Shown: positions 7,591 to 61,597, numbered from the stretch's first letter. The stretch: 64,000 bases of DNA from a virus (UHGV-0010228), one strand, 5' to 3'. The notes: generated by a model from the letters alone, not told the origin. A program made the numbers and translations.

Positions 7591-7653
7591 AAATATATAT
7601 TATTTATATGAATCAAATATCACAATATATTTATAATAAAGGAGGAGAATAAA

Positions 7654-9461: not shown

Positions 9462-9548
9462 TGTAAGGACGTTCTTGTGTGGAATAACAAGTAATTAAAT
9501 TAAAATAAAGCTTATATTTAATTTAAAATATAAAAGGAGGTATAAAAT

Positions 9549-29465: not shown

Positions 29466-29492
29466 GGGGGGGGGGTAAAATTACCCCCCCCC
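29466..29492 (+). terminator. G10-loop-C9 homopolymer hairpin terminator
   Basis: aaata gggggggggg taaaatta ccccccccc tattt immediately after 1033-aa fibre gene. Confidence 0.8.
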
Positions 29493-32163: not shown

Positions 32164-33978
32164 ATGTCAACAACAGACAAATTAACATATGATTCTACAA
32201 ATAAAAAGAGATCTAAAACTGTGAGTCAATATGAATTATCAAAAACTTATAGTTTTAATACTAAAGGAAAATATAATGATTCAGATATAGATTTAACAGT
32301 AGATATAGATTTAGAACGACTTACTTCTGATGGAACCGCAGCACCAACTTATGTTCTTACAGGAAAAACTTATTATAATCGCGGAAAATTATTAGAAGGT
32401 AAAATGCCAATAATTAATACTATTTCACTCAATGTATCTTCGATGGATGTTGGTTCTACAATAACTAGTGCAAGTTCTTCAAGTTATACTTTAGAATCAA
32501 TAATTAATGATACTCTAACAGACCTTAAATCTTACATTTATTCAGCACTGGATAATGGAATAACAACGGTTAGGTTTTCGATAACAAATTCTAATCTGGC
32601 AGCCTCAATAGGTCTCACTGCAGACAAAATACTTAAAGGTAATACCATATTAGGCATTGATGGAACTGTGGAGAGCGGCTCAACTTTAGGAAAAGTATAT
32701 AAACAATCAAATTTTATTATGTCTTCAACTGATAGCTCGATCTGTGTAACGAAATTTTTTAATAAAATATTAGTAGCTCAGGTTAATAACGCGTTATATT
32801 ATTCTGAGGATGGAATAGATTGGACTATATCGAATATTACAACGGGTGCATATTATAGTAAGGCTAATGAAGTCAGTGGATATGCATTATTATATGGTGA
32901 AGCTAAGGGGTGTTTGTATTCTACTGATGGAAAAACGTGGACAAATCTTTCCGGTTCTCTTAGTACAGCAAATATATCGTATGCCACAGTATTGCTTGAT
33001 AGCCTTTATGTATCACCAATTAGGAATGGTTTATGGAGAACGTTAGGTACCATTGGTACTACCATGTATAGGTGTTTCTCACTTACTTCAGCCGAATATT
33101 ATGACAAAATTGTTACTTTTGGAGCAGGGAAAAAACAAATAATAATTGCAATAGGTGGCGATAGTAATACTGGTATAGTATATTATATGAAAGGGTCAGA
33201 TACATCATGGACAAAATATGATACTATTACATCTAGGATTGATAACATAATTCAATTAGATAATGGATTATACGTCGCAACATCAAGTGTTGGAAGTCAT
33301 TCGTATTATTCATCGGATCTTATTACATGGAATACCCATAGTGGAATAGAAGATTATGATGTATACACTCCGGGTGCACTTGCTTATGTTAGTGATAAAC
33401 CAATTAATGGTAGTCGATATATTGGAATTGCTAATAATAACACTGGACTTTATTATTCTGTAGATGGTAAAGAATGGATTCAGTCTAGTTTAACTGATGT
33501 GCGTTACAGTAGTAGTTCCAATAATAATGGTTTATATATATCAAATAATTATAATTTTGCTATTCAAGTATTTACTTTGAATAGTGCTGGCTCACAGAAT
33601 GGAATATGGTATACTACTAATGGTATTGATTGGACTAAATCAAACAGATCTGGTACTTATTTAGATCCAATTGTAGAACTACCGTATTATAACTTATTAT
33701 ATTCTGGATATTATTATTCTGAGGATAATGGTAAGACTTGGGTCCGGTCAAACTTATCACATAAAATATATAATGAGTACTTATACGTCACTGATTCAAT
33801 AATATGTTATAACTATGACACATATTTATATTATTCGACTGATGGTAAAGTATGGACCAAAGTTAATACAAACCATATGTCAGGATTAACATTCGGCGGT
33901 ATTAGTACTTCAATTGTATCTATTAAAGGCCGAATTATTGTTCCTGACGGCAAATTGGGATTTTTATACTCAGAATAA
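32164..33978 (+). CDS. receptor-binding protein with BNR/Asp-box-like beta-propeller repeats
   Basis: TAGGAGGAAA RBS; repeated YYSxDGxxWT motifs; ADKILKGNTILGIDGT module. Confidence 0.7.
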   Translation: MSTTDKLTYDSTNKKRSKTVSQYELSKTYSFNTKGKYNDSDIDLTVDIDLERLTSDGTAAPTYVLTGKTYYNRGKLLEGKMPIINTISLNVSSMDVGSTITSASSSSYTLESIINDTLTDLKSYIYSALDNGITTVRFSITNSNLAASIGLTADKILKGNTILGIDGTVESGSTLGKVYKQSNFIMSSTDSSICVTKFFNKILVAQVNNALYYSEDGIDWTISNITTGAYYSKANEVSGYALLYGEAKGCLYSTDGKTWTNLSGSLSTANISYATVLLDSLYVSPIRNGLWRTLGTIGTTMYRCFSLTSAEYYDKIVTFGAGKKQIIIAIGGDSNTGIVYYMKGSDTSWTKYDTITSRIDNIIQLDNGLYVATSSVGSHSYYSSDLITWNTHSGIEDYDVYTPGALAYVSDKPINGSRYIGIANNNTGLYYSVDGKEWIQSSLTDVRYSSSSNNNGLYISNNYNFAIQVFTLNSAGSQNGIWYTTNGIDWTKSNRSGTYLDPIVELPYYNLLYSGYYYSEDNGKTWVRSNLSHKIYNEYLYVTDSIICYNYDTYLYYSTDGKVWTKVNTNHMSGLTFGGISTSIVSIKGRIIVPDGKLGFLYSE

Positions 33979-34000
33979 CAAAGGAGGAGAATATTTTATT

Positions 34001-34207
34001 ATGAATTTAAATCTTAAAAACTTATATATCCGTCATGCGAAGGATATTAAAAATCTAGCAGATTCTAAAGCTGTAGATGTTGGAGTTGCACTCGATATGT
34101 GGTGTAATGATAGAGGAATTAGATATGTTCCTCACGATAATGAACAAATAGAATTCCTTAATTTATGTAGAGAGCATACTTTAGATAAAGTAGTAGAATC
34201 TTTATAA
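34001..34207 (+). CDS. hypothetical small protein (68 aa)
   Basis: AAAGGAGGAG RBS before internal ATG of track ORF 33914-34207; hairpin 34224-34251 after stop. Confidence 0.5.
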   Translation: MNLNLKNLYIRHAKDIKNLADSKAVDVGVALDMWCNDRGIRYVPHDNEQIEFLNLCREHTLDKVVESL

Positions 34208-34263
34208 AAATAATAATAATATTAGAGAATAGACAAAATTGTCTATTCTCTCTCTATTATTTC

Positions 34264-34518
34264 TCTATTACTTTCTCTATTATAACCTATAAATTAATAT
34301 AATAATATCTATAGTATAGAATAATTATATAATATAATTATTCTATACTATAGATATTATTATATTAATTTATAGTATTTTATATTATATATAGATTATA
34401 ACTATAGAAAGGAGATTATATAATTATGGCTTTTTATAGATGTGATAGAGGATTAGGATTTGATATAAGTAATAGTACAGGAAATAGTAGTGATGTATTG
34501 TATAGTAAGAAGTTTAAT
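34264..34518. repeat. inverted repeat IR-A left copy (~255 bp; P + leader + RBS + codons 1-31 of gene A)
   Basis: Reverse-complement identical (4 mismatches near inner end) to 38026-38280. Confidence 0.85.
34287..34375. repeat. 89-bp perfect palindrome P (42-nt arms, 5-nt centre), copy 1
   Basis: ctataaattaatataataatatctatagtatagaataattat ataat ataattattctatactatagatattattatattaatttatag; arms exact reverse complements. Confidence 0.9.
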
Positions 34519-36213
34519 AGAGATGTAGGTGATGTACAATTAAATGAATATAAGTTTCCATCACGTATATCTTACTCGCTACTTTCAAATAACTCTTTTA
34601 GAATTAATTCTAATATATATTTTGTAAATAATCTTTCAATAGATGGTGTTAAGCCCAGTGATATTAAATTAGGAATTAATCTATACAACATAAATGGAAC
34701 TACTAAAATGGCTTGTGCTAATTATAAAGAAACTACCCCCTTTCAGTATATTTCTGATTATATTCCATATTACAAATCCTCATGTTGTATATCCCCATCA
34801 ATTGGGTATAATAATTATATTTGTGGAAATAATACAATATACCAGATAAATAATGATGATAATCATATTATTAAAAAATTTAATCTTACAGAAATTCGTA
34901 ATCAGATTAATTTTTTATATCATAGATATCGATCTCAAAAAATTGAATCTTTTGTTAGTTCTAGATATGTACCAGAAATTTTAATATATGATTACATTCA
35001 TAAGACCGATGATCAAATAAAAACGATCTATAAAAATTATTTCAAATCTAATGGCAATATAAACATTGATCCTGATGATTATATTATTAATTATTTCAAT
35101 AATTTTTATCATCAGGAAATCTACTCTAGCGATATCGGAATATACTCTGAATGCGAAAATTATTTAATGTGTTATTTTCTCGGAAACGAAATTGGATCAG
35201 AAATGATTGATAGTATTGTATTTAAGAATATTGATAATGGGAAATATGACGCTGTATATGATTATACTCCTGCGGGTAGATATACTAGACATTTAGTATA
35301 CTTTTTAATTAAGATTGAGAATGACGAAATATATTTATATTCACAAACACTTTTTTCTAATGAAGAATTTAGATATAAATCTCTTCTAAAAATTGATAAT
35401 AATCATATCTATCATACAATTAACAATAGATCCTCGATGATAGTATGTGAACGAAATTCGAAAACATTTGAAATAATCGCTAAATACTCGGGATTTTATG
35501 ACAATACGTATTATTGCAATATTATTGAGCAAGATAATTATTTTTATTATGTTAAATATGCTAAATTATATAAACTAGATTTGGATCTTAATTTGATATC
35601 ATCTGAATTATTTGATAATGTTGCAACATTATATGGTGATGATCATATAAGTAAAAATCTTTACGCGACGCGGTTATCATATTCAAAAAATCATATTAAT
35701 ATATATGGGTTTACCAACGGATTTGGCTCGAAATCAACTACATTTAATGGTATTTCTGGAACTACGAAATATCTTCATAATGATGAAACTTATATAGATA
35801 TACCAATTCAAACAAATCTAAATACACTTACATTAGCAAATCCTAATCTGCTTAGGGTATATGTTACTGGTTCTATACACATGCTAGAAGATGTAGCGTG
35901 GCTCGAAACAGATGATTGTATATTCATGTTTTATAATAAATCAGAAGCTCCATTATATACAGTATTCAATACTGATTTTACATATGGCTACACATTAGAT
36001 TTATCACAGTATGCATTCTATGATATTTTATCACTGAATTTAAAAAATAATGTATTATATATATCATATAGAGATAGTAATCGCAATAGATTAAATATTT
36101 CTCGTATAGATCTCTACATCAATATTCTTTACTTTCTTAACAATTATAATGAAATTAATATAACTAATATAGACTCTTCTAATTCTAATTATACAGATTA
36201 CTATTTTAATTAA
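34426..36213 (+). CDS. receptor-binding/tail fibre paralogue A (595 aa)
   Basis: GAAAGGAGA RBS; first 28 codons and 160 bp upstream identical to inverted copy at 36256-38118; C-terminal YTDYYFN. Confidence 0.7.
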   Translation: MAFYRCDRGLGFDISNSTGNSSDVLYSKKFNRDVGDVQLNEYKFPSRISYSLLSNNSFRINSNIYFVNNLSIDGVKPSDIKLGINLYNINGTTKMACANYKETTPFQYISDYIPYYKSSCCISPSIGYNNYICGNNTIYQINNDDNHIIKKFNLTEIRNQINFLYHRYRSQKIESFVSSRYVPEILIYDYIHKTDDQIKTIYKNYFKSNGNINIDPDDYIINYFNNFYHQEIYSSDIGIYSECENYLMCYFLGNEIGSEMIDSIVFKNIDNGKYDAVYDYTPAGRYTRHLVYFLIKIENDEIYLYSQTLFSNEEFRYKSLLKIDNNHIYHTINNRSSMIVCERNSKTFEIIAKYSGFYDNTYYCNIIEQDNYFYYVKYAKLYKLDLDLNLISSELFDNVATLYGDDHISKNLYATRLSYSKNHINIYGFTNGFGSKSTTFNGISGTTKYLHNDETYIDIPIQTNLNTLTLANPNLLRVYVTGSIHMLEDVAWLETDDCIFMFYNKSEAPLYTVFNTDFTYGYTLDLSQYAFYDILSLNLKNNVLYISYRDSNRNRLNISRIDLYINILYFLNNYNEINITNIDSSNSNYTDYYFN

Positions 36214-36219
36214 TAAAAT

Positions 36220-36250
36220 ATACATACTATCTATTATAGATAGTATGTAT
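36220..36250. terminator. bidirectional hairpin between convergent paralogues A and A'
   Basis: atacatactatctat t atagatagtatgtat flanked by aaat / ttt. Confidence 0.7.
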
Positions 36251-36255
36251 TTGAT

Positions 36256-38118
36256 TTAGTTAAAGTAATAATCAGTATAAGATTCATTAGATGTATCTAT
36301 AGAATATCCAGAATATGATGTATCATAATCATTAAGAAGATAAAGAGTAGAAGCGTTTTTCGCTAATTCTATAATAAAATATTCCGAACAATAAGGATTT
36401 TTGTTTCCACTCGAATAGACAACATGCGGCATAAATAAATAACGGAATTTATCAATTGGCGATATTAAATATTCAAAATTTGAATTCATTTTATCTTCAA
36501 ATAGACGAATCTCAACTTCATTTGGATAATATGACAGTCTATTTAATAAAATATTTCTTTTAGTCGAATACGCATTCAAAGAAACCATATCCACGCAGAA
36601 AGATGTATTTTTTTTTGTAGCGTTACCACTTTCGACATCTGGTAATTTATAATTTATATCATTAAATGCTTCTAAATTTTCTAAATAATATCCACTAAAT
36701 GAGTTATCTGAGTCGTAACATCCGTTCAATGTCGAAAGGTATGCTGAATAATACGTTTTTCGAGAGTCATAAGAAAAATATAGTTGATTTCCAATTGGAA
36801 GTGGAACTAAATTATACCTGTTATGAAAATAAATATTAGTCTGTTTAGTGTTATTGGATATAAAATAAAGATTAATATATTTATCAATAATTAATTCTCC
36901 TGATATTATATCATAATATCTAATCTTATTAGAAAAAAAGACTATTAATTTTGAATTATCTTGGCTTATTTTATATATTAAATTAAAGGATCCGTCGCCA
37001 CTGATAGATTGAAATGGTTTATTAAATATTGCTATTTCAGACAAGGAATTTCTATCAATTACCACAACGCAATAATCAGTTACGTAAGTAGATTTATAAA
37101 CATACATATCATCATTAATATATGAGTGGTTATTACTAGTATTATAGACCTCAGTGCTATACATCCAATATTTGGCCAGAATCGCCTGATATTCGTTCGT
37201 AGAAGAGTTCATTCCCACTTTATCATTTGGATCAATCTCGAACTTATAACCAATTAAATACGTGTCCGAGACATCTAGTATTGAATATGTTTTCCATTTA
37301 TTTCCTGAATTCATAGAATAATCAATAAGCTCCATATTTTTATTAAATTTACACCAAATATAACCTGGATATATACGTGAAAAATATTTCTTATATGGCG
37401 AATCATTATATGAAAATCTAAAATCTGTAACGTATGGTTTTGGAAATAATAAGAAATAATCTCCCATATCATATAATTTAGTTTTTCGGTGGTTTATGTA
37501 CTTATGAGCATCATATGTATTAGAATCTACCAATGGTGAATTTGGAAATGTGATGTGTTTTATAAGTAAACCATCTGAATTATATATGTAATAATGTATT
37601 AAGCTGTTATAATCAGAGACTGAAAATATATAACAATTATTTGAGCTGTCATATGATATTCTATCATATCTAATATCATAATGGGTTTTATATGAATACA
37701 GATCGTAACGTATCATAGCTGTCTCATAAAATAATAAACTAGCAAATATGTGATCCAATTCGGGCATGTTAATGTATTTTATGGGACTCGTTGTTGTGTC
37801 AACAAATTTACAACATCCACGGATACCATAAATTTCCACTTTCTCAGAAATATAATTTTTAATATCCTTTGTTGTTGGTATAGTGATATCTTTAGTTAAC
37901 ATTGATGGCCTATATCCTCTTTCGTCATAGGATAAATAGTAATCATTCATATGATTTATTGTATTAAACCATACGCTATAAAATGAATTTAACGTTTCAA
38001 TATTACCTTTTCTACTCTCTCCATTGTTAAACGTCTTACTATACAATACATCACTACTCTCTCCTGTACTATTACTTATATCAAATCCTAATCCTCTATC
38101 ACATCTATAAAAAGCCAT
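36256..38118 (-). CDS. receptor-binding/tail fibre paralogue A' (620 aa), convergent with A
   Basis: Same RBS/N-terminus MAFYRCDRGLGFDISNSTG as A; same C-terminal YTDYYFN encoded with different codons. Confidence 0.7.
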   Translation of the reverse strand: MAFYRCDRGLGFDISNSTGESSDVLYSKTFNNGESRKGNIETLNSFYSVWFNTINHMNDYYLSYDERGYRPSMLTKDITIPTTKDIKNYISEKVEIYGIRGCCKFVDTTTSPIKYINMPELDHIFASLLFYETAMIRYDLYSYKTHYDIRYDRISYDSSNNCYIFSVSDYNSLIHYYIYNSDGLLIKHITFPNSPLVDSNTYDAHKYINHRKTKLYDMGDYFLLFPKPYVTDFRFSYNDSPYKKYFSRIYPGYIWCKFNKNMELIDYSMNSGNKWKTYSILDVSDTYLIGYKFEIDPNDKVGMNSSTNEYQAILAKYWMYSTEVYNTSNNHSYINDDMYVYKSTYVTDYCVVVIDRNSLSEIAIFNKPFQSISGDGSFNLIYKISQDNSKLIVFFSNKIRYYDIISGELIIDKYINLYFISNNTKQTNIYFHNRYNLVPLPIGNQLYFSYDSRKTYYSAYLSTLNGCYDSDNSFSGYYLENLEAFNDINYKLPDVESGNATKKNTSFCVDMVSLNAYSTKRNILLNRLSYYPNEVEIRLFEDKMNSNFEYLISPIDKFRYLFMPHVVYSSGNKNPYCSEYFIIELAKNASTLYLLNDYDTSYSGYSIDTSNESYTDYYFN

Positions 38119-38280
38119 AATTATATAATCTCCTTTCTATAGTTATAATCTATATATAATATAAAATACTATAAATTAATATAATAATATCTATAGTATA
38201 GAATAATTATATAATATAATTATTCTATACTATAGATATTATTATATTAATTTATAGGTTATAATAGAGAAAGTAATAGA
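38026..38280. repeat. inverted repeat IR-A right copy
   Basis: See 34264-34518. Confidence 0.85.
38169..38257. repeat. 89-bp perfect palindrome P, copy 2 (between divergent genes A' and B)
   Basis: Identical to 34287-34375. Confidence 0.9.
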
Positions 38281-38296
38281 GATATAGAGATATAGA

Positions 38297-38334
38297 GAAT
38301 GACTATTATTAGTCATTCTATTTGTTTTTTTTTT
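38297..38334 (+). terminator. leader hairpin + T10 upstream of gene B (attenuator-like)
   Basis: gaatgactattattagtcattc then tatttg + tttttttttt; mirrored at 55218-55254 on minus strand upstream of gene B'. Confidence 0.55.
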
Positions 38335-38490
38335 GTTATACATTATATTAATATTATATAATATAAGGAGGTATTATAATGTTTGATTTATATAATACAT
38401 TAGAATCATATAATATAATAGATAATGATTATGCATATGAAGGTATTATAGATAAAGTAAAAAATGTAGGTAGTACTATATGGGGATTTG
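38297..38490. repeat. inverted repeat IR-B left copy (~194 bp; hairpin+T10, leader, RBS, codons 1-37 of gene B)
   Basis: Reverse-complement identical to 55062-55254; outer flank continues into P with a ~20-nt ATAGAG-unit indel. Confidence 0.85.
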
Positions 38491-39203
38491 TAAAGAAAAT
38501 GTGGAAAGGAATGAAAGCTAAACTCGCATGGCTAGTTAAAAAAATGATACGTTCAGTTATAGGTAAAGATACGAAGAAAAAGTCTAAAGATGATGATGTT
38601 ATTGAAGTTGATGCTAAACCTGTAAATAATAAATCTGAAGATTCAAATGAATATAAAAATACAGTAAATAATGCAAAATCAAATATTAATGCTAGGCATT
38701 TAGATGTGAAACTATTAGAAAAATTCTTTAATCTTAGCATGAAACTTTCATCGATACATAGTATAATTAATAGATATCGTATAATGCTGAATCGCCAGTC
38801 GTTACATGATGCTAAAATATTTCGAGATTTAGGTGTTGATGTCGATGATATCAAGGTTGATGAAAACGACAATGATGATGAGGAGAATAAACTTAGAATA
38901 TCAGAAACTAAATCATTCATTGAAGAATTACAAGAAACGCTTAATAAGATTCCTAAGGAAAGCCGCATAAATCTTAAAGAATTTATTAAAACTAATGAAT
39001 CAGTAACAAAAGCATTCGTTACTGATTGTAACAAAACCATTAAAGAAATTGATGAAATTTTAAAAGAAGTTGATAAGTTAGTAAAAACATCAACAAGTAT
39101 AACAGAAAAGACAAAAAATATTATAATCACAAACACAAAAGAGATATCTCAAATAGTTGCAGCATATTATAAGTGTATGTCGGATGCTTATTTTTTACAT
39201 TAA
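38379..39203 (+). CDS. Lys/Glu-rich coiled-coil protein, paralogue B (274 aa)
   Basis: TAAGGAGG RBS; first 36 codons + 80 bp leader identical to inverted copy at 54163-55173. Confidence 0.65.
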   Translation: MFDLYNTLESYNIIDNDYAYEGIIDKVKNVGSTIWGFVKKMWKGMKAKLAWLVKKMIRSVIGKDTKKKSKDDDVIEVDAKPVNNKSEDSNEYKNTVNNAKSNINARHLDVKLLEKFFNLSMKLSSIHSIINRYRIMLNRQSLHDAKIFRDLGVDVDDIKVDENDNDDEENKLRISETKSFIEELQETLNKIPKESRINLKEFIKTNESVTKAFVTDCNKTIKEIDEILKEVDKLVKTSTSITEKTKNIIITNTKEISQIVAAYYKCMSDAYFLH

Positions 39204-39205
39204 TA

Positions 39206-39245
39206 TAATAAATAGAATTACTCATATGAGTAATTCTATTTATTA
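39206..39245 (+). terminator. long AT-rich palindrome after gene B
   Basis: tataataaatagaattactca ta tgagtaattctatttattaata. Confidence 0.55.
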
Positions 39246-39339
39246 ATATCCTTTATTTTACCTTATAATATCAACATTCTTATAATATGTTACATTTTGT
39301 CATGGTAATTTTATTAATTAATATAAAGGAGGTATTTGT

Positions 39340-40365
39340 ATGCCTAGTACAATACGTGGATCACTTGTAGTTCCCCCTAAAGGTAATTCTACAGGAGGAT
39401 CTGGTGGATTTGTAATTACTGTAGATTCTGATGGAAACCTTGATAAATCTTGGGGTGAAATAATCACCGCAAATAATGAAGGTCAGAATTTAATTATAAA
39501 AACCGTAGATGCCAATGGAAATGAACGTATTTTATATTTAGACAATATTGATGTAGATTCAACTACAAATATTGGTGATATCACATTTGTAAGTGGTACT
39601 GTTGATGGTGATGCTTTACAGTTAATATTATCATCTACTGATGGCGTTAATCATACAAAAACCACAACAAATGTAAATTATGTTGTAGCAGGTGCTGATG
39701 GTAAGTTAGATGGAAATTCTATTCCATCAGCATCAGCAACTACTGCAGGTGGAGTTAAATTATCCGATGCTACAGATTCAGATTTAAATGCAGCTACCGG
39801 TGGAACTGCTGCTACTCCTTATGCAGTTAAACAGTTGGCTACTTTAGTTGGTGAAAAGACATCATTTAGAGAAGTTACTCAGGCAGAATATGATGCATTA
39901 GTAGCAGCAAATACTGATGATCCTGAAGTTATCTATGTAATAACAGATTCGGATGATAGTAAGATCATTGGTCTTATAAATGAAACTATTCATCAGAATC
40001 AGACAACGTGGTATGGGACTTCTTCTACTGTAGCAAACTCTCCGGGTAAAACTGTAACTACTACAGGTGGAGATTTTGTACTCAAAGCAGGTAAGAAAGT
40101 AACTGTTAAGTTTACTAATGGTAATACTGCATCAGATATAACTTTAAATGTTGATGGTATGGGTATAAAGAAAATAACTAGATATGGTACTGTAGCTTCA
40201 GGAATATATCCTTGGAGTGCGGGTTCAGTTATTGATTTTATATACGATGGTGAAAGTTTTATAGCATTAAATGCAACTCCTACTATTCGTATAGGGACTA
40301 AAACTCCATCAGCATCAGATGGTATAGATGGTGATATCTTCTTAGTTTATGATGCTAAATCATAA
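39340..40365 (+). CDS. tail fibre protein with TIRGSLVVPPK N-terminal anchor motif
   Basis: AAAGGAGG RBS; Gly/Thr/Ala-rich. Confidence 0.7.
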   Translation: MPSTIRGSLVVPPKGNSTGGSGGFVITVDSDGNLDKSWGEIITANNEGQNLIIKTVDANGNERILYLDNIDVDSTTNIGDITFVSGTVDGDALQLILSSTDGVNHTKTTTNVNYVVAGADGKLDGNSIPSASATTAGGVKLSDATDSDLNAATGGTAATPYAVKQLATLVGEKTSFREVTQAEYDALVAANTDDPEVIYVITDSDDSKIIGLINETIHQNQTTWYGTSSTVANSPGKTVTTTGGDFVLKAGKKVTVKFTNGNTASDITLNVDGMGIKKITRYGTVASGIYPWSAGSVIDFIYDGESFIALNATPTIRIGTKTPSASDGIDGDIFLVYDAKS

Positions 40366-40387: not shown

Positions 40388-42403
40388 ATGTCTGAATATA
40401 TAATAAATGAAATCGGTAGTGCAGAGATGTCTATACCAGACGGTCTTTCAGAAGGTGATACTTTAAGATTTAATATTACAAACTCTGATGAAGCAACTGC
40501 ATATACTGGAACTATAATGAACTGGACAGTTCCTATGGACTTAGTTGTTCAGATAGATGCATATGGATCTAGAGGTTCATATGGTAACTTATATACATAT
40601 GGATTAACCGATACATCTAGATCCGGTAATGGTGCACATGTTGGTGGAGTATTTAATTTATCAGCAGGCTCTGAATTATTAATATTAGTTGGTCAACATG
40701 GTAAAGATGCTATGACAGGTACAGGATCTACTAGAGATGGTGTATCTGGTTGCGGTGGTGGAGGAACATTTGTTGTCCTTAAAACTGACGAATCAACTGG
40801 AAGTTTATTTGTTGGATCTGATACTAATGGATCTAAAGCTGCATATGGTGGATGGTATGTTTCGCCATTAGTAATTGCTGCAGGTGGCAATGGATCTAAG
40901 GATAATGGATATTCCGGAACTGGTCCCGGTAGAGGTGGTTTATCTACAACTTATACATCAAAACCTAGTTATTCATCATCATTGACAGGTGGTGGATTTG
41001 ATACTGCATATGGTACAAATAATAGCAATTCATCTTCATATGGATATGGTTTATCATTCTTAAATGGTGGATTAGGATCTCAGTATGCATATAGTAGATC
41101 TAGTATGACACCTAAAGCCGGATTCGGTGGCGGTGGAGGAAACTCCGATGATGGATATGGTGGTGGAGGTGGTGGATACTACGGCGGTATCCAATCTGCT
41201 GCTGCATGCTCATATGTTTCTCCTGATGCTGAATCAGTTATTACTGGTGAGGACGATATTAATGCTGGTGATGGATATGTTATTATAACTATAATTGAAG
41301 GAGGAAAAATATATTCTCCTGAAGTATATATGAGAGATAATGGCGAGATTCATAAATATTCAGATATGAAAGTATCTGTAAATGGCGAATTAAAAACTAT
41401 TAAAAACTTCTATTCTAAAATGGATGGAAAATGGGTTAAAATGGCAAGAGAAATTGTAGTATATGAAGCTGGTAAATCATGGACTCAATCTAATATAGAT
41501 AGTGGAAGTTTTTATAGTGTATATAATGCTAATGGTATATGGGTAGCTTGTAGTGGTGGTAATGGTCTTTATTATTCTACAGATGGTAAAGTATGGACTC
41601 AATCTAATATAACTAATGATGCTTTTCATACTGTATATAATGCTAATGGTATATGGGTAGCAGGTAATAATAATGGTCTATATTATTCTACAGATGGTAA
41701 AGCATGGACTCAATCTAATATAACCACTGGAGGTTTTAGACGAGTATATAATGCTAATGGCATATGGGTAGCATGTGATGCTGATGGTATTTATTATTCT
41801 ATGGATGGTAAATCATGGACTAAATCTAATATGACTTATGGAACTTATCATGATGCATATAATGCTAATGATATATGGGTAGCAGGTGGTAGTGGTAGTC
41901 TTTACTATTCTACAGATGGTAAAGTATGGACTCAATCTAATATAGATAATGGTAGTACTACCATCTTTTTCTCAGTATATAATGCCGATGATATATGGGT
42001 AGCAGGTAGTGATAATGGTCTTTATTATTCTACAGATGGTAAAGTATGGACTCAATCTAATATAGATAATGGTAGTTTTAATACTGTATATAATGCTAAT
42101 GGTATATGGGTAGCTTGTAGTGGTGGTAATGGTCTTTATTATTCTACAGATGGTAAAGTATGGACTCAATCTAATATAGATAATGGTAATTTTAATACTG
42201 TATATAATGCTAATGGTATATGGGTAGCTTGTAGTGATGGTAATGGTCTTTATTATTCTACAGATGGTAAAGTATGGACTCAATCTAATATAGATAATGG
42301 TAATTTTAATACTGTATATAATGCTAATGGTATATGGGTAGCTTGTAGTGATGGTAATGGTCTTTATTATTCAGAAACTAGAACAGAATATGTCAATAAA
42401 TAA
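40388..42403 (+). CDS. receptor-binding protein: Gly-rich domain + ~11 tandem BNR-like 38-aa beta-propeller repeats
   Basis: TAAGGAGGTG RBS before ATG 40388 (track ORF starts at 40349); GFGGGGGNSDDGYGGGGGGYYGG; repeats LYYSTDGKVWTQSNIDNG.FNTVYNANGIWVA. Confidence 0.7.
   Translation: MSEYIINEIGSAEMSIPDGLSEGDTLRFNITNSDEATAYTGTIMNWTVPMDLVVQIDAYGSRGSYGNLYTYGLTDTSRSGNGAHVGGVFNLSAGSELLILVGQHGKDAMTGTGSTRDGVSGCGGGGTFVVLKTDESTGSLFVGSDTNGSKAAYGGWYVSPLVIAAGGNGSKDNGYSGTGPGRGGLSTTYTSKPSYSSSLTGGGFDTAYGTNNSNSSSYGYGLSFLNGGLGSQYAYSRSSMTPKAGFGGGGGNSDDGYGGGGGGYYGGIQSAAACSYVSPDAESVITGEDDINAGDGYVIITIIEGGKIYSPEVYMRDNGEIHKYSDMKVSVNGELKTIKNFYSKMDGKWVKMAREIVVYEAGKSWTQSNIDSGSFYSVYNANGIWVACSGGNGLYYSTDGKVWTQSNITNDAFHTVYNANGIWVAGNNNGLYYSTDGKAWTQSNITTGGFRRVYNANGIWVACDADGIYYSMDGKSWTKSNMTYGTYHDAYNANDIWVAGGSGSLYYSTDGKVWTQSNIDNGSTTIFFSVYNADDIWVAGSDNGLYYSTDGKVWTQSNIDNGSFNTVYNANGIWVACSGGNGLYYSTDGKVWTQSNIDNGNFNTVYNANGIWVACSDGNGLYYSTDGKVWTQSNIDNGNFNTVYNANGIWVACSDGNGLYYSETRTEYVNK
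41468..42372 (+). repeat. tandem array of 114-bp coding repeats (BNR-like blade units); last three units >97% identical
   Basis: Units at 42061-42174, 42175-42288, 42289-42370 differ by 1-2 nt. Confidence 0.85.
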
Positions 42404-42421
42404 AATTGGGGGTGATATTTC

Positions 42422-43165
42422 ATGAAAATGATGAAAAGAAATAAAACTACCGGTAATCGTGAGATTATTGGTGGTAGCGTAGCACCTGCTACAATAAAAG
42501 TTGAAAATGTTGGTACTGATGTTAAGATAACAACAACTGACCAGGAAGAAACTACAGTAGCAACATTTGGTAATGGTATAAAAGTTGTAGGTACATTATC
42601 TAAAGGTGCTACTGAAATTATACTCAAACATGATCAGATAACTGAAGATAGTATTATTGAATGCTATAGTAGTGTATACAATGCTAGACCACAAGATATT
42701 GAAACTAGTAGTGGGCAGGTTAAATTAACATTTGCTGCTCAGAGTAGTGATATACAAGTTATGATATTAATCAAAACTGTAGACATGGGTAAAGTATATC
42801 TTGATACAACAGATGCAACAGCAACTGCCAGTGATATCGCTAATGGCAAAACTGCATATGTAAATGGTAAGAAAATAAGTGGTGGGTTAGAAAACGCTGA
42901 TTTAATTCATTTAGGAATAACAGACACATCAGAATTGCGCGATTTTGATGATTCAAAAGCAATTGGTGTTTTATATTCTAGTAATTATAAAATGACTTCT
43001 GATAGACTTACCTCCGGAAAATATATTGTTGATATGTCTAATACGGTTATAACTGCATATGCATCATATGCTGCATTAGCCGAGGTTATTGGATTAACTG
43101 CAGATAAGATTGTAAAAGGCAATACTATATTAGGTATTGCTGGAACTGCAGAAGTATCATCATAA
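42422..43165 (+). CDS. fibre-associated protein (247 aa), paralogue of next gene
   Basis: GGGGGTGA RBS; N-terminus MKMMKRNKTTGNREIIGG; C-terminal ADKIVKGNTILGIAGT module. Confidence 0.6.
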   Translation: MKMMKRNKTTGNREIIGGSVAPATIKVENVGTDVKITTTDQEETTVATFGNGIKVVGTLSKGATEIILKHDQITEDSIIECYSSVYNARPQDIETSSGQVKLTFAAQSSDIQVMILIKTVDMGKVYLDTTDATATASDIANGKTAYVNGKKISGGLENADLIHLGITDTSELRDFDDSKAIGVLYSSNYKMTSDRLTSGKYIVDMSNTVITAYASYAALAEVIGLTADKIVKGNTILGIAGTAEVSS

Positions 43166-43559: not shown

Positions 43560-43609
43560 AATTACGGTATATTCTATATATAGAATATACCGTAATTTCT
43601 TTTTTTTTT
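43560..43609 (+). terminator. 38-nt perfect palindrome + T9 terminator (copy 1 of duplicated terminator)
   Basis: aattacggtatattctatatatagaatataccgtaatt tct ttttttttt. Confidence 0.8.
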
Positions 43610-43624
43610 CTATTATTATGCTAT

Positions 43625-43641
43625 CAAAACATCACAGTAAA
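43625..43641 (+). promoter_or_regulatory. conserved fibre-gene upstream motif caaaacatcacagtaaa (candidate late promoter element)
   Basis: One of four copies of CAAAACAYC...ATAAA 18-47 nt upstream of large fibre gene starts. Confidence 0.5.
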
Positions 43642-43687
43642 CTTAATGCTTTCATTAATTATTTTTTTTTTGAAAGGAGATGACAGT

Positions 43688-46249: not shown

Positions 46250-46298
46250 AATTACGGTATATTCTATATATAGAATATACCGTAATTTCTTTTTTTTT
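46250..46298 (+). terminator. identical terminator copy 2
   Basis: Same 53-bp sequence as 43556-43609 (T-run one shorter). Confidence 0.8.
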
Positions 46299-46362
46299 AT
46301 TAGTATATTATTAAAGTGAATAAATACAATACATAGTATATAATATAAGGAGGAATATTACT

Positions 46363-46952: not shown

Positions 46953-46969
46953 CAAAACATCACAATAAA
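46953..46969 (+). promoter_or_regulatory. conserved fibre-gene upstream motif caaaacatcacaataaa
   Basis: 46 nt upstream of ATG 47015. Confidence 0.5.
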
Positions 46970-47014: not shown

Positions 47015-50000
47015 ATGCCATGGTTTCCTACATGTGGAGGCGTTGATACATCAGACGCAAATGTAACTCCAGAAGATGTATTAGAAGGAAAAATAGTATA
47101 TTCACATAATGGCCCAGTTGTGGGCACAATACCAAGTTTACCAGAAAAAACCTGGATTCCAGGACCTGAAGAACAGGTAATTCCGGGAGGACATTATATT
47201 GCAGGTACACAGACAATTAAAGGTGATCCTAACCTTTATCCAGAAAATATAGTTAAAGGTAAAACTATATTTGGTGTAGAAGGCACAGGTATACCTGTGG
47301 AATTTAACGATCCAACATTTATTGAAAAATTGTGCGTATCAGATTTTAAAGGTAAAGTTGATTTCTCTAAAGATTCCGAATATTTCTATACTTATGGTAC
47401 TTCAATTATTAATAAACATAATTCGACAACTGGAGAAGTTATATGGTCTCAATCAATATCTGATGATACTAAAAAAATATATTCAAATTTATATATAACA
47501 CCAGATGATCTTCTTATATATTATGGATCTAAAAATGGATATTTAAATTCAATAATAGCAGATTCAGGAATTTCTCATTTAAGTGTTAAGGTATTAGATA
47601 CAACAAAATCTGTTGAATATATAAAGGGTATTGAAAATTATAAAGGTTCAACATTCAGCTTATTATTATTTGTGCCAAATACAACAGTTATTGGAAGGGT
47701 AGATTTTATTGACACGTCTACTAATAATATAGAAACAATTACTATACCATCTAGTTATTCTATCGATGTCGATGATAAGGATATCTATTATTATTGCAAT
47801 TCTTCTTCTCCAAGAAAGATATGCAAGATATGTACAGATTCAGCGGATAATTATGAAATTGAAACTGGAACTATAAATAGTTATGGAATACAACCTGATG
47901 GAAAATATTTATACACAGTAGCTAAGGTTGATAATACTACTGATAAATTATCACAGTATAATGCAGAAACTGGTGCATTAGTACGTAGTGTGAACGTTGA
48001 TGTAAACACCCGTGATAACTGCTCATTACTTATTACGGATAGTTTATCGGAATATATATATCTTCAAAATACTAGAACTATATATAGATACTCAACTGAT
48101 TTGTTGTTAAATTATGCTAATAACCCATTTTTATTTACAGATGGTACAGTGTCCAGTGCTGTTGATAGTGCTAGTGTTGATAGTAATGGAGAATATGTAT
48201 ATGTATCATATTTAAGTGAAGATACCTCTGAGTTGTATAAATATAAGCAGGTATTTGGATCAATATACCCATTGGAAAATCCGGATCCTTATATCAATAT
48301 AGATAGAATTATTAAGAGAAAGAAAGATACTTATAAAACATATGAAACCCCAGTAGAAATCTGGGATGATGAATATGATTCAGAAATTGACTCTATTAGT
48401 TGTACTGATGATGGTCATTATGTATACATATGCACGCAGAATAATGGATTTATAAAAATGAATTCTGTAAATAAGAAAATTATATGGTCATATAATGATG
48501 GTATGTCAGGATATGTAGTTGTAGATCATAATGATAAGTATGTATATGTAGCAACGAATAGTGCATTAACTAAACTTGACGCATCAAATGGTAATGTTGT
48601 AATTTCATTATCAGATTATGCAAGATCTAGAACTGCTGCATATTCTATACAGAATATGACTATTACAGATGATAATGAATATTTAGTATATATTAATAAC
48701 AATAGTAGCTCTGCAAGTAGTAGTAAAATTGTTAAATTTAAAACTTCAGATATGAGTGTTAAATGGGAAAAGACACCTCATACTAATTACATTAACCAAT
48801 TAGATTTAGTAAGTAAAACTGGAGATATATATTTCAATAAATCTTCTCAGATACCTATTGAAACGGATTATATTCTTCCATTCACTGGTGGTGTAAATAA
48901 TGTAGTATATTTTAATAGTAAATATTTATTATTACCTAATAAAACTTTCATTACTAATAGTGAAACTAATACAACTGAGTTTACTTATTACTTAGGCGAT
49001 ACTCTTAATATAGCGTATATGGAAAAGCACACTATTAGTACTGATGGGATGAATACTAATTTTAGCGATTATACGATAACCAAAATAGTTGCATCTTCAT
49101 ATGTGTGTATTATATATGTAAAAGGCATTGACAATGCATCATTAACTGAAAGTGAAACTTCATTAAATAAATATTATTATACTTATGATGGCGTAAATTG
49201 GAGTGAGGGTTCATTTGGTTTATACTGCCCAACGTCAAATATTATTAATTGTAGTAATACATTTATATATTCGGCATCGGATAAGAGTACATATAATAAA
49301 TTATTCTCATCATATGATGGAATAAATTGGACTGAGAATACTAATTATACAGATACATATACTAATGGTACTGTATGGGGATTAGGATATGTCAATTCAA
49401 GATATTTATTAGTATCTAATATATTACAATATTCTACAGATTTTAAAACTTTTAGTACTGCAACTATTGCTAGTTTGCCTAGTGAAACTGCTGTTGGTGA
49501 GAATTTTGCTAATAAATATGGAGAAATTCACTGTGTTTATATATATAGCAGATATTATTTAGCTTGTGCTGATGGAATATATTATTCGTCTGATTTAAAT
49601 ACTTGGACAAAATGTACATTTACTTATCCGACTAGTGCGGATTTTCCTTCCGAATTATCTTACCCATTATTAATGACCAACTATAGTAATTATATATATA
49701 TTATAGAATCTGCTAGTGGTAATACAGCTGAAATATCGAATTATGTAAGATCAATTTATATTACTTCAACATCACAGACATCTTTCAATGTAACTAATAT
49801 TAAAGCTGCACCATTATTAAGTGAAACATCATCAACATCAACATTATTTGTAACTGGTGGATGTGTAAGTGATAATGCTATTGCCGGTCTTTATTATTCT
49901 ACAGATGGTAAAACATGGACTCAGTCTAATCTAACAACTGGACTTTTTAGCGATGTGTGTAATTTTGATATATGGGTAGCAGGTAGTAGTGATGATGGAC

Positions 50001-53000
50001 TTTATTATTCTATAGATGGTAAAACGTGGACTCAATCTAATATAACAACTGGTCATTTTAGTGCTGTATATAATACTACTGGCATATGGATAGCAGGTAG
50101 TAGTATTTTTGATAGTAAAGGTCTTTATTATTCTACAAATGGTAAAACATGGTTTCAATCTAATATAACAAGCGGAGGATTCTATACTATAAATTATGCT
50201 AATGATATATATCTAGCTTGTGGGGAAGGACTTTATTATTCTACAGACGGTAAAACATGGGAAAAGACTACTGTGAGTGGAGGATATCTGACTAGTGGGG
50301 GTTTTAGAAATGCATATTACGCTGATGCTATGTGGGTAGTGTGTAGTAATGATGACTATTGCTCTTATTATTCTAAAGATGGTAAAGCGTGGGCGCAATG
50401 TGAACCAGCTGTCGAAGAGGATGTATTTTGTAATATAGTATATTATTCTAATAAGAGTATATGGGTAGCTGGTAGTGAGCAAAGTAATGGATTGCAATAC
50501 TCTACAAATGGTATGTCGTGGACTCAGTCTAATATAAGCACTGGAATTATTAGAACGGTGTGTTATGGTAATAATATAGTTATAGCTGGTGGATATAACA
50601 CTGGTATATATTATTCTACAGATGGTAAAACGTGGACTCAATCTAATACAACCACTGGATCTTTTAATTTACTTTATTATTATGAGGATATATATATAGC
50701 TGTTAGTGGCAATAATAAAGGTCTTTATTATTCTACAGATGGTAAAACATGGACTCAATCTAATATAACTAGTGGAAGTTTTATGACTTCTATAGGTGAA
50801 TCATACCACCCAGTTACAACAAATAACAACAATAATTACATCTACTGTAATAGTAGATTAGCATCTTTCCCTGCGGTTACTGCTGATGATACTCATAGTA
50901 ATACTAAATATAGTATTGGATCATTAGAGAATTCTAAAATTCAACAATTAACTTATCAGGATACTAGAACTACTAATACAACATATTACGGATTATCTAC
51001 ATTTAATAATTCAACAGCAATATTATTAGGTCAATTCGAAGGGGCGAATCAAATTACTGATAATTATGCATATTCTACAGATAGTGGAGCAACATGGACT
51101 GGTGCGCATATGCCTAAAAAAGGCGAATGGATACATGTCGGAAAATTAATGAGTAAATATATTGCAGTATGTAATAGTAGTAATAATTTAGCAATATATG
51201 AATCGTCAGATGGGAAATCATGGTCACAGGGATCTATAACAAATTCCAATGGTAACGCATTAGCAAATAACATGATATCTATAAATAACGATGAAAATGA
51301 TGTTAAAATAAAAGTAATAACTAGTCCACTTATATCATCATTTGCAATAATCGTTTATACAACAATTGGCATAAATGTTGAAGGATATTATGTTTCATCT
51401 TCATTAAGCACTGGAAGTGCATTTAAAGTACAAAATTTCTCATCAAATATGACATCAACCCCATTATGTGCTATAAACGATACTTCACAAAAATGTATGT
51501 TTTTAGGTTGGAGTAATAATGGTAAATTTATGTACAGTGATGATATGCTATTATCACTCATGAATGGTGATTACTATACTGAAGTTACATCTTCAGAATC
51601 AATATCAAACTGGGATATGTATTCTGAAATAACAGGTGTAAAACTTTCAGATACTCAATATTTAGTATCGATGCAACCAACTTCATCATCAAGCTTAGTT
51701 AAAGTAGGATTGCTCGATACAAGTGCAAATACTTTAACATTTAGAGCGTCAACGTGGTATAATGGTAGATTTGTTGCTCCAGCAAATGGTAAGTTATATG
51801 CACTTAATACTTATAGTGTAAATGGAAATAGTGGTGGAGGTAAATTTACATCTATAACAAACTATGACACAACTAATACTGTAAAAGATGATGTTCTTCC
51901 GTCAGATCTATCATCATCTATAAGTAAAAATGATAAAACATATACTACATTATGCTCTTCAGGTACAAATCTTATTACAGTTATAAATGGTGAACCATAT
52001 GCATATTATACTAAGAACCCATTAGTAATTTCTGGTGGTGATGATAGATATATTAGAGCTATAGATTTCTTAACTGGAAATACAATATGGTCATTCTCAT
52101 TATCATATGCTGCAAATGGTATATATGTAAGTGATGATAAGAAGTTTGTATATGCTACAGTAAATGGCAATTCATCATCAGCTAATCTTTATAAATATAA
52201 TATTAATGCTACTAATTTATCTTCAATGAAGTATTCTACTAATTCATATTCTAGTGCAATATTCGGTAATGGAGATAAGATATTTACTGTTAAAAGTTCT
52301 AATGGTGGTATATTAGCCGCATATGATCCTGAATATCTTACAAATGATTATTCACTTACAGGTGCTAATGATACATCAACTGGACAGGAATATGGTAGAT
52401 GTTTAACTTATGATTCTGCTGGTGATTATATATATGCTGGTACTTATATGAATACTGGCAAAGGCCATTTACATAAATATAAATTAAAAGAAATTGAATA
52501 TGAAAAGATAGCAAGGGTATATAAGACTACTACAACAGGAGAAGATACTGAGGGAAAGGTATGGACTCAATCTAATATAAATAGTGGAGATTTTTATACA
52601 GTGTATTATGGTAATAGTATATGGGTAGCCGGCAGTATTAGCGGTAAAGGTCTTTATTATTCTACAAACGGTAAAGTATGGACTCAATCTAATATAACTA
52701 GTGGAGATTTTAGATCTGTATATAATGCTAATGGTATATGGGTAGCTGCTAGTGATAGTGATAATGGTCTATATTATTCTACAGATGGTAAAGTATGGAC
52801 TCAATCTAATATAAATAGTGGATATTTTTATACAGTGTATTATGATAATAGTATATGGGTAGCTTGTAGTGGTAAAGGTATATTTTATTCTACAGATGGT
52901 AAATCATGGACTCAATCTAATATAAATAGTGGAGATTTTTATACAGTGTATAATGCTAATGGTATATGGATAGCTGGTGGTATTGATACTGGTCTTTATT

Positions 53001-53476: not shown

Positions 53477-53633
53477 TTTTATTTTTTAAATCTAAAAATT
53501 TATATTTAATATTAACACTTAATTCACACAAAAGAAGAGTTAAAAATATTAATATTTAATGATATTAATATTTTTCTATTAATAAATTTTGTGTTAATTG
53601 AGTAAATTCAATTAATAATTCAAATTTGTAATT

Positions 53634-53692
53634 AAAAAAAAATGTAGATGAGTATATATTTTAAAATATATACTCATCTACATTTTTTTTTT
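53634..53692. terminator. bidirectional A9-palindrome-T10 terminator between giant fibre gene and gene B'
   Basis: aaaaaaaaa tgtagatgagtatatatttt aaaatatatactcatctaca tttttttttt. Confidence 0.8.
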
Positions 53693-53730: not shown

Positions 53731-53770
53731 CTATAAATTAATATATAGATATTATTATATTAATTTATAG
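53731..53770. repeat. truncated P element
   Basis: ctataaattaatata + tagatattattatattaatttatag followed by gtaaataagagagaaa and palindrome gaatgactaatattagtcattc (53793-53814). Confidence 0.7.
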
Positions 53771-54162
53771 GTAAATAAGAGAGAAAAATAGTGAATGACT
53801 AATATTAGTCATTCACTATTTTAATATATTTAAATATTTATTAGCTTCATCATTACTTATCTTACACGTTCACGATAATGCTTACTCCGTAAAGTATTTA
53901 TTATATTATACATTTCATCTTTACTCATGAATCGAAGCTGATTATCTAATTTATACACATAAAATTTTGTGGTACCTAAATCAGATTTAAACGTTACTGC
54001 TGAAAAAGATATACCTTTGACTTTAAAATATTTAATTTTTGACTTGATATTTGGATTTGAGTTAGTAATCTCTTTACCTTTTTCTTTAGCTTGAATCTTA
54101 TAGAATTCGATAAAGAATTTTTCATTAAGAGTAGTCCGTTTAAAAGGTTATATAATTAATTA

Positions 54163-55173: not shown

Positions 55174-55254
55174 TATAATACCTCCTTATATTATATAATA
55201 TTAATATAATGTATAACAAAAAAAAAACAAATGAATGACTAATAATAGTCATTC
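55062..55254. repeat. inverted repeat IR-B right copy
   Basis: See 38297-38490. Confidence 0.85.
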
Positions 55255-55272
55255 TCTATTCTCTATTATAAC

Positions 55273-55326
55273 CTATAAATTAATATAATTATTCTATACT
55301 ATAGATATTATTATATTAATTTATAG
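55273..55326. repeat. truncated P element (left arm deleted)
   Basis: ctataaattaatata + attattctatactatagatattattatattaatttatag; followed by gtaaataagagagaaagtaataga. Confidence 0.75.
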
Positions 55327-55410
55327 GTAAATAAGAGAGAAAGTAATAGATAGAGTAATGATAGATAGAGTATACATCGTCTTAGATGTATACTCATATA
55401 TTATTCGCCT

Positions 55411-55427
55411 CAAAACACCATGATAAA
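55411..55427 (+). promoter_or_regulatory. conserved fibre-gene upstream motif caaaacaccatgataaa
   Basis: 40 nt upstream of TTG 55467. Confidence 0.45.
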
Positions 55428-61580: not shown

Positions 61581-61597
61581 CAAAACACGATAATAAA
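61581..61597 (+). promoter_or_regulatory. conserved fibre-gene upstream motif caaaacacgataataaa
   Basis: 18 nt upstream of ATG 61615. Confidence 0.45.

Follow-up and report, generated by a model that had tools for sequence, protein, structure and literature searches.

The 64,000-nucleotide (nt) stretch of virus UHGV-0010228 analysed here, referred to as the window at its full length, carries an 89-nt palindrome, P, in front of each of two convergent genes, A and A', which belong to a gene family hereafter termed A-type. All copies are accounted for most simply if P is taken as part of the 5' end of A-type genes, and as best reading P was suggested to mark a recombination-prone cassette boundary, being neither a general late promoter nor a replication origin or packaging site. 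Precisely, P was reasoned to be the 5' boundary element of lineage-restricted, hypervariable and mobile A-type cassettes and to serve as portable recombination homology, a proposal which is given about an even chance of being correct. Among the activities considered for P, rearrangement is the only one with direct comparative support, whereby the compared sequences support it in part.

P equals its own reverse complement save for a single centre base and, since this base alone is unpaired, has to be written as 44-1-44, correcting the 42-5-42 arm structure given in a preliminary description of the window. Two identical full copies are present as stated there, the first at 34287-34375, ending 50 nt upstream of the A start codon, and the second at 38169-38257, which precedes A' (minus strand) by 50 nt and gene B by 121 nt; no strand is assigned to P or to its derivatives. 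Two shorter copies were likewise placed correctly at 53731-53770 (P3*) and 55273-55326 (P4*), whereas calling them truncated was mistaken, as both carry internal deletions and kept their ends: the 40 nt of P3* correspond to P bases 1-15 joined to 65-89, with a 49-nt central deletion between TATA direct repeats, and the 54 nt of P4* to bases 1-17 joined to 53-89, with 35 nt lost between two AATATAAT direct repeats. Long palindromes classically decay via slippage between short direct repeats across the hairpin. A 28-nt P-arm probe found 6 matches in the window against 0.00 expected from 100 shuffles, perfect hairpin arms reached no more than 9-14 nt in 30 Markov resamples of the window as compared to 44 nt in P, and as single-stranded DNA P was calculated to form a hairpin of -34 kcal/mol (z = -13). 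The palindrome is real, far above chance and more structured than first described. Next to it, the window holds perfect palindromes with arms of at least 12 nt, 24 in total, nearly all of which are intergenic, resemble terminators and have G/C cores and arms of 12-29 nt; P stands apart from these by its length as well as its composition, with just 4 of its 44 pairs being G-C. Across samples, P was found to be 89/89 identical in five contexts, the centre base (A or T) excepted, while its flanks vary by (TA)n length and spacer indels.

In A-type genes a palindrome is followed by a short leader with a Shine-Dalgarno sequence and by conserved first codons (N-terminus MAFYRCDRGLGFD...), after which a body that varies, last codons that are again conserved and a conserved terminator hairpin complete the unit. 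A palindrome of the form CTATAAAT...ATTTATAG was identified upstream in 8/8 distinct A-type upstream regions recovered, which include those of A and A', of A and A'' from a second genome arrangement (type L, described below), of a gene from the diverged relative L037 and of a third paralogue (696/724 amino acids, aa) located ~10 kb before the window. The A-type palindromes end 37-60 nt before the ATG and are followed by CTATAGAAAGGAG. For the third paralogue the palindrome comprises 34 nt (CTATAAATAAATATAT-TT-ATATATTTATTTATAG), ends 37 nt before the ATG and is again followed by CTATAGAAAGGAG, and the hairpin after this gene (L012:15885-15915) is near-identical to the perfect palindrome at 36220-36250, which lies between the 3' ends of A and A' and likely serves as bidirectional terminator. 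P copies without an A-type neighbour either kept a leader remnant (the left site of type L) or lost their centre (P3*, P4*). Searching relatives for P copies and the genes they flank, as had been proposed, tied P to A-type genes. The A-type leader also contains a (TA)n tract differing in length (34376-34407 and 38137-38168 in the window, L014:17122-17163 and L001:9762-9797 in relatives), and the distance from P to the Shine-Dalgarno sequence ranges from 29 to 42 nt among copies and genomes. A-type proteins have 6 relatives among 1.84 billion representatives.

P is not free-standing but embedded in larger inverted repeats. The arms of the first repeat, IR-A, comprise 260 nt with 98% identity and house P copies 1 and 2: the left arm (34258-34517, plus strand) runs from the CT-rich spacer b' through P1 and the 50-nt leader a' with its Shine-Dalgarno sequence to A codons 1-31, the right arm (38027-38286, minus strand) holds b', P2, leader and codons 1-31 in front of A'. 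Gene A (595 aa, 34426-36213, plus strand) encodes a conserved N-terminus of ~31 aa and a conserved C-terminus of ~33 aa with a variable middle and falls into no known family; the A-type gene A' (620 aa, 36256-38118, minus strand) is convergent with A and has only the first 31 aa in common with it. The second repeat, IR-B, adjoins P copy 2 and P4* and shares a 168-nt exact run between its arms, of which the left one (38320-38545, plus strand) covers a T-run, a promoter-like region, a Shine-Dalgarno sequence and the first ~55 codons of B, and the right one (55007-55232, minus strand) lies in front of B', adjoining the P copy at 55273. B (274 aa, 38379-39203, plus strand) opens a 17-kb fibre block and B' (336 aa, 54163-55173, minus strand), whose first 56 aa are common to B, closes it.

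The left part of the locus reads from a 68-aa gene (X) and its terminator through b', P, a' and A to the oppositely oriented A' with its leader a, P, spacer b, a hairpin with T-run and B. The right part reads from six fibre-region genes and a 2153-aa gene through P3*, a gene remnant, the leftward B', a hairpin, b', P4*, spacer c and a further hairpin to the fibre-region gene F (55467-59738). P is the only element that A-, B- and F-type junctions all have in common. Most positional statements of the preliminary description agree with this layout: copy 2 sits between the divergent A' and B, copy 1 upstream of A (precisely, between the co-directional 68-aa gene and A) and the 55273 copy upstream of F, between divergent B' and F, and the accompanying small palindromes and GA-rich flanks both exist. 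The more general statement, that P recurs inside divergent promoter regions, is true for copy 2 and P4* but not for copy 1 and P3*, and P3* was found not to lie upstream of B' as had been assumed, but past the B' 3' end, with the end of the convergent 2153-aa gene on one side and a gene remnant lacking a start on the other. This remnant is a 96-codon open frame without usable start (53857-54147, minus strand), located directly after the B' stop and not present in type-L genomes, which is probably the remnant of a displaced gene; its interpretation as recombinase or endonuclease relic gained no support, as no family match was obtained.

A diverged form of the element was identified in L037 (ERZ26858444), where another convergent A-type pair is accompanied by a 92-nt palindrome, P' (45-2-45, -35.9 kcal/mol), sitting ~47 nt upstream of the ATG and hence at the same relative position as P. 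The termini of P' are kept (CTATAAATTA...TAATTTATAG), and as compared to P it shows 6 substitutions and 3 indel positions per arm, each one mirrored in the other arm. As all differences between P and P' are mirrored, it is the symmetry that is maintained and not the interior sequence; the palindrome arms differ by ~20%, the adjacent leader and N-terminal codons of L037 and the window by only ~7%. In the same sample as the P' genome the F-upstream site begins with the end of P' (L033), copies within one genome therefore sharing one variant, which suggests that P copies evolve in concert within a genome.

Template switching is documented to perfect quasipalindromes without selection (PMC7202029), and this lends itself to an improbable explanation in which P is functionless: an A-type 5' region would long ago have been duplicated head to head, and P would be the core of this duplication that has stayed perfect, being corrected within the hairpin and carried along with the genes. 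The ready decay documented by P3* and P4* and the lack of P in one relative would be in line with this, as would a short resemblance of the far-side flank to the leader, TTATAA(C)TA(T/G)AGAAAG, were it not that this resemblance is not significant (p about 0.17); spacer b as decayed copy of leader a' is unsupported on the same ground. Further, a palindrome this prone to deletion is nonetheless found at full length upstream of A-type genes in lineages whose arms differ by ~20%, and a palindrome with the same termini occurs at the unlinked third paralogue. The persistence of full-length palindromes beside A-type genes despite their visible tendency to decay argues for some benefit.

Two arrangements of the locus were identified among close relatives, type W being represented by the window, ERZ28615499, ERZ27286939 and two other samples and type L by ERZ27287442, ERZ27287438, ERZ28614457 and two Hadza samples. 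In type W, X is followed by the P-bounded convergent pair of A and A', the block from B to the inward-facing B', P4* and F; in type L, X is followed by a leader remnant with P, the block from B to the inward-facing B'', the P-bounded convergent pair of A and A'' and then F. The P-bounded A pair is thus found on opposite sides of the 15-17 kb fibre block. At its left site, where A and A' are not present, type L holds the 68-aa gene, the terminator, a piece of b', the A' leader remnant, one full P, b, the hairpin and B, whereas its right site consists of the leftward B'' (226 aa), the hairpin, b', P, a' and A, followed by the leftward A'' (573 aa), a, P, b* and F. Exact look-up revealed B as well as a 176-aa and a 118-aa protein to be identical between both types, and A is 99.5% identical, while its partners A' and A'' agree with each other only over ~26 residues at the N-terminus and 31 at the C-terminus. 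In total, P or a derivative marks boundaries at four places in the window and at five in type-L genomes. The place of P4* in type W is precisely the one at which two full P copies enclose the pair in type L, and P4* hence fits a loss by exchange between two P copies at the AATATAAT repeat. Either the pair moved, by excision and re-insertion at another P or by successive inversions between P-containing repeats, or the ancestor had both sites filled and each lineage underwent one loss. The role as recombination site, raised in the preliminary description, hence gained support from the location of the A pair on opposite sides of the block and from P4*, but not from the left site of type L.

There, the empty-site junction lies outside P, in spacer b' and the A' leader with ~3-4 nt of microhomology, which is no clean exchange between P copies and shows that P is not needed for every event. 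This is the first of several points which weigh against P as portable recombination homology of mobile cassettes. A two-site ancestor with two independent losses explains both types without any movement, and the longer inverted repeats round P (260 nt and 168+ nt) could by themselves sustain homologous recombination. Contig breaks at P sites are accounted for by repeats longer than the assembler's k together with the palindrome itself; with a 168-nt exact run exceeding k, such breaks were rejected as a sign of population heterogeneity. Furthermore, the distinction between full and decayed copies according to the adjacent gene is based on seven non-independent sites, and the inspected sequence amounts to ~85 kb of a genome of roughly 225-255 kb, so that P copies elsewhere are possible. 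The function of the cassette genes is also concerned: for A and A' no sequence match to Pfam, PHROG or the PDB was obtained and an AlphaFold model of A, calculated without alignment, was unusable (predicted local distance difference test score, pLDDT, of 31), wherefore their label as fibre cassette is tentative; the genes neighbouring A and A' are fibre-like.

A more distant syntenic relative (B 47% identical, contigs of 231-237 kb) carries neither A-type genes nor P at this locus and kept the terminator after the 68-aa gene. In this relative (L010:9387-11357) two 186-aa paralogues in inverted orientation lie on either side of the B homologue, without P, the inverted repeat (9667-9834 and 10925-11092 of L010) being 86% identical, which constitutes another inverted-duplicate arrangement at the same locus.

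A cassette found at two alternative P-marked sites may also be taken to point to a dedicated structure- or site-specific enzyme which shuffles cassettes by targeting P, either as an attC-like hairpin site or as a cruciform that a resolvase or nuclease of the phage would cut. If structure plus end motifs were recognised, the ends should be conserved while the interior may vary as long as it pairs perfectly, which is the pattern observed; the centre base (A or T) is uncoupled from flank orientation, and AT-rich perfect palindromes are known to readily extrude cruciforms. Nevertheless, this explanation is considered quite improbable: no recombinase, integrase, transposase or homing-endonuclease domain was identified in ~30 proteins scanned round the locus (Pfam, PHROGs), neither attC-type core sites nor extrahelical bases nor a target-site duplication were found, one of two empty-site junctions lies outside P, and exact P-arm scans of IMG/VR, JGI metagenomes and GTDB genomes gave no match. 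Equally improbable is the bolder form of this idea, in which the CTATAAAT...ATTTATAG palindromes would be the structure-recognised sites of an unrecognised cassette system of AR9-like jumbo phages, whose enzyme binds or cuts the hairpin or cruciform; if true, gene pairs would be excised, inverted and re-inserted at other P sites by an integron- or shufflon-like diversity generator operating without an integrase homologue.

Integron attC sites resemble P in being palindromic with conserved ends and a variable interior, in marking cassette boundaries and in occurring with cassettes at alternative positions. In contrast to P, attC sites are imperfect, have extrahelical bases and RYYYAAC/GTTRRRY cores, are recombined by IntI as single-strand hairpins and follow promoterless open reading frames (ORFs). 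P as attC site was rejected, the arms of P and P' being perfect, a GTTRRRY core and an integrase not being found and the cassettes having their own Shine-Dalgarno sequence and leader. Two further assignments failed: a miniature inverted-repeat transposable element or insertion-sequence repeat, as there is no target-site duplication (AACC|P|TATT, AATA|P|GGTT) and no dispersed copies occur in the three collections named above, and a protelomerase target (telRL), as P is present in multiple internal copies whose number varies in relatives and no protelomerase match was obtained among the scanned proteins.

Among the products of the window are a terminase, a tail sheath and virion structural proteins of families that are typical of jumbo phages, the terminase being closest (28-35% identity) to those of the Bacillus phages BpSp, Goe21, AR9 and PBS1 and of the Staphylococcus jumbo phage S6, and identical copies of window proteins occur on human gut metagenome contigs of 223-235 kb, including those of Hadza samples. 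Judged by its sequence, the phage is an AR9/PBS1-related gut jumbo phage. Its strong Shine-Dalgarno sequences, together with a terminase resembling those of AR9, PBS1 and S6, point to a low-GC Firmicute as host. The AR9 late-promoter word AACA-N6-TA (promoter consensus from PMC5312081) recurs in the window and precedes many structural genes by 30-60 nt, among them those starting at 43646, 47015, 55467 (F), 61615, 9549, 12449, 8727, 21881, 23838 and 39340, whereby the consensus scan placed sites at 43628-43639, 46956-46967, 55414-55425 and 61584-61595. The recurrence of this word suggests that an AR9-like non-virion RNA polymerase operates in this gut phage. A longer form, CAAAACAYC, is common to four giant fibre genes.

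The preliminary description had listed a bidirectional late promoter or operator as one candidate role of P, which is not supported for B and F, as these possess their own promoter-like motifs nearer to the ATG, past terminator-like hairpins. For F this is the AR9-type late-promoter-like motif AACACCATGATA at 55414-55425 (plus strand), beyond the hairpin downstream of P4*, and for B and B' a conserved cassette of hairpin, T-run, promoter-like region and Shine-Dalgarno sequence is placed between P and the ATG. The B-type cassette (hairpin GAATGACTA..TAGTCATTC, T-run, GTTATACATTATATTAATATTATATAATATAAGGAGG) was identified at 38296-38374, 55178-55254, 46320-46356, 9507-9543 and L012:16515-16610 and also precedes a 189-aa gene which lacks P; parts of this terminator-promoter cassette, in itself a module reminiscent of the promoter-early stem-loops (PeSLs) discussed below, are found before the 176-aa and sheath genes. 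Sigma-70-type promoters inside P are not supported, as the hexamers occur at the level of shuffles. CTATAAAT as general promoter word is not supported either, since it is not enriched (20 found vs 13 expected) and, beyond the P copies, is intergenic only at 5831.

A primarily cis-regulatory role for A-type genes, in which P would be a symmetric operator bound by a regulator of dimeric or oligomeric form, would act as upstream promoter element, or would insulate or terminate as a stem-loop directly ahead of the A-type promoter, in the manner of the stem-loop half of a PeSL, the rearrangements being incidental, was judged possible but rather unlikely. It would agree with the position 37-60 nt from the ATG in all paralogues and the diverged relative, with the conserved termini CTATAAAT(T/A)A and with the decay of gene-less P copies. 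On the A-gene side P is followed by TATTTTAT, together giving a hairpin plus T-rich tail, and the hairpin, T-run and promoter cassette at the B-type genes and the 189-aa gene is analogous to this. On the other hand, a stem with 4/44 G-C pairs is almost pure A/T and would make a poor intrinsic terminator, the evident terminators of this phage having 12-29-bp stems with G/C cores and A/T runs. No AACA motif was found in the A-type leader, which matches the AR9 early consensus in 11/13 positions, a degree of similarity that is at chance level, as matches with two mismatches are too common (47 found vs 29 expected). Beyond this, the P interior diverges faster than its flanks (~20% vs 7%), unlike a sequence-specific operator of this length, a half-site of 44 bp far exceeds known operators, a 34-nt version suffices for the third paralogue, and the spacing between P and the Shine-Dalgarno sequence shifts by 10-20 nt via (TA)n. 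A cis-regulatory or insulator role of P for A-type genes, taken for itself, is possible. The window's only zero-mismatch match to the AR9 early consensus, AAATATATATTAT-N6-G, is located at 7591-7610 (plus strand), upstream of a 159-aa gene (7654-8133).

That P might act as replication origin or packaging (pac) signal, as had also been considered, is highly improbable. AT-rich long palindromes with short repeats and divergent units do occur at some viral origins, e.g., herpesvirus oriL. Here, however, two or three full copies are found together with decayed ones within 21 kb of a variable region, decay is tolerated, close relatives differ in how many copies they have and where these lie, P is missing from a syntenic relative, and there is no skew inflection at P.

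The closest precedent are the PeSLs of T4-type phages (Arbiol et al. 2010, PMC2839356; PMC4122927), repeated terminator-promoter cassettes which mediate insertion, deletion and replacement of orphan genes (PMC2839356). Like P, these are short, repeated intergenic modules of a stem-loop and a promoter region which flank orphan non-core genes in a hyperplastic or variable region; near-identical T4-type phages differ where genes between PeSLs were inserted, deleted or replaced, as may also be the case here between P-containing repeats, and for both systems exchange driven by homology was proposed, with no dedicated recombinase being known. Differences concern the element itself, as a PeSL is a short G/C stem beside a sigma-70 promoter whereas P is a perfect palindrome of 89-92 nt that consists almost entirely of A/T and is tied to one gene family with conserved N-terminal codons, and also the phage, which is AR9-like with its own RNA polymerases. 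Applying the PeSL criterion of a junction within the repeat, the right empty site (P4*) is found inside P and the left one in spacer b' and the A' leader. Promoter and terminator activity as well as mini-circles, which characterise PeSLs, are putative for P. With the hexamers inside P at chance level, the PeSL pattern of promoter and terminator is matched better by the separate hairpin, T-run and promoter cassette of the B-type genes.

The invertible segments of other phages (Mu G/Gin, P1 C/Cin, e14 P/Pin and the p15B Min shufflon) share with the present locus the inverted repeats which bracket oppositely oriented genes with a constant N-terminus in a tail-fibre region. Unlike there, A/A' and B/B' are complete, each with its own leader, start codon and N-terminus, for which reason inversion would not switch expression; the repeats measure 170-260 nt instead of the ~26-34-bp crossover sites inside one ORF, and no serine invertase was identified among the proteins flanking or inside the locus (Pfam, PHROGs). 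The Campylobacter group II phages CP21/CP220 (PMC4546147) likewise have direct and inverted repeats between modules of varying order and orientation, and broken assemblies, but their repeats are arrays of 72-86-bp units over hundreds of bases which separate large modules, not single perfect palindromes of one gene family. Modular shuffling by linkers or regulatory cassettes thus appears to be already known in kind, with the perfect-palindrome form of P being what differs.

The suggested mechanism assumes that the boundary modules, which are repeated in identical form, i.e., P, spacer, hairpin, promoter region and N-terminal codons, would provide portable homology for the phage's general recombination machinery. 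Since P equals its own reverse complement, two P copies should be able to pair in either register, which would permit inversion as well as deletion or excision. Copies of P without an A-type gene would then be scars of deleted or moved cassettes. Symmetry would be kept by arm-to-arm correction through template switching within the hairpin, and the palindrome would decay by slippage between short direct repeats once no A-type gene is adjacent. An additional cis role in A-type expression, as insulating stem-loop or control region, is plausible.

Megablast of 33000-40000 against 50,697 phage records (INPHARED) gave no DNA match, scans with the A-type start region found nothing in IMG/VR and JGI metagenomes, and neither did a search of IMG/VR with back-translated protein A. 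The termini pattern CTATAAATTA-N55-85-TAATTTATAG retrieved 8 matches from IMG/VR, none of them palindromic and all attributable to chance, and Rfam covariance models at gathering thresholds had no match in the whole window. Two further candidates were set aside, P0005 residing at an unrelated locus and P0004 not being located.

The elements surrounding the P copies are as follows. A terminator-like hairpin after the 68-aa gene (34224-34251) is conserved in relatives without P. On the side of P2 facing away from the A-type gene, the GA-rich spacer b with AATAGAGA-type repeats (38258-38295, plus strand) is followed by the terminator-like hairpin GAATGACTATTATTAGTCATTC with its T-run (38296-38335, plus strand), located between P2 and the B promoter region. 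Left of P4*, the hairpin GAATGACTAATAATAGTCATTC and the CT-rich spacer b' occupy 55233-55272, and between P4* and the F promoter region the GA-rich spacer c and hairpin hp2 (55368-55395) occupy 55327-55395 (plus strand). P3* is flanked on its left by a 58-nt perfect palindrome with A/T runs (53634-53691), resembling a bidirectional terminator, and on its right by a hairpin containing GAATGACTAATATTAGTCATTC (53785-53822).

Several observations were made besides. The A/A' cassette (34001-38000) has a GC content of ~25% as compared to 30-33% in neighbouring structural genes. Dozens of tandem repeats of 111-117 nt (~38 aa) with the BNR/Asp-box-like motif YYSTDGKxWTQSNI are found in four large fibre-region genes (41328-42536, 49869-50895, 52408-53517 and 62795-63964), their copy number varying between relatives (684 vs 595 aa; 2153 vs 1843, 1871 and 1885 aa). 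Among the fibre genes a DHH-family phosphoesterase-like gene lies on the opposite strand (60358-61485, minus strand; 363-375 aa across relatives). The same 38-nt perfect palindrome (AATTACGGTATATTCTATATATAGAATATACCGTAATT) with a T-run behind it occurs twice, at 43560-43597 and 46250-46287, after a 120-aa and an 860-aa gene, and both copies are kept with changes in the distant relative L010. The hairpin GGGGGGGGGTAAAATTACCCCCCCCC (G9/C9) at 29467-29492 is striking at a genome GC content of 30%.

If P indeed marks the boundary of mobile A-type cassettes, a large lytic gut phage would swap and relocate fast-evolving genes beside its tail-fibre block without a dedicated recombinase, whereby self-complementary boundary elements, pairing in either orientation, would move the genes. 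Known from T4-type phages, the idea of linkers or mobile regulatory cassettes would thereby be extended to the AR9-like jumbo phages found in the human gut. From a practical point of view, the repeats break metagenome assemblies and can mis-order fibre regions. The locus exists in two natural arrangements, its scars are defined, and ~9 changes per arm, all mirrored, separate the two palindrome variants; it offers a concrete, testable case in which the survival and the activity of long palindromes in phage genomes may be studied.

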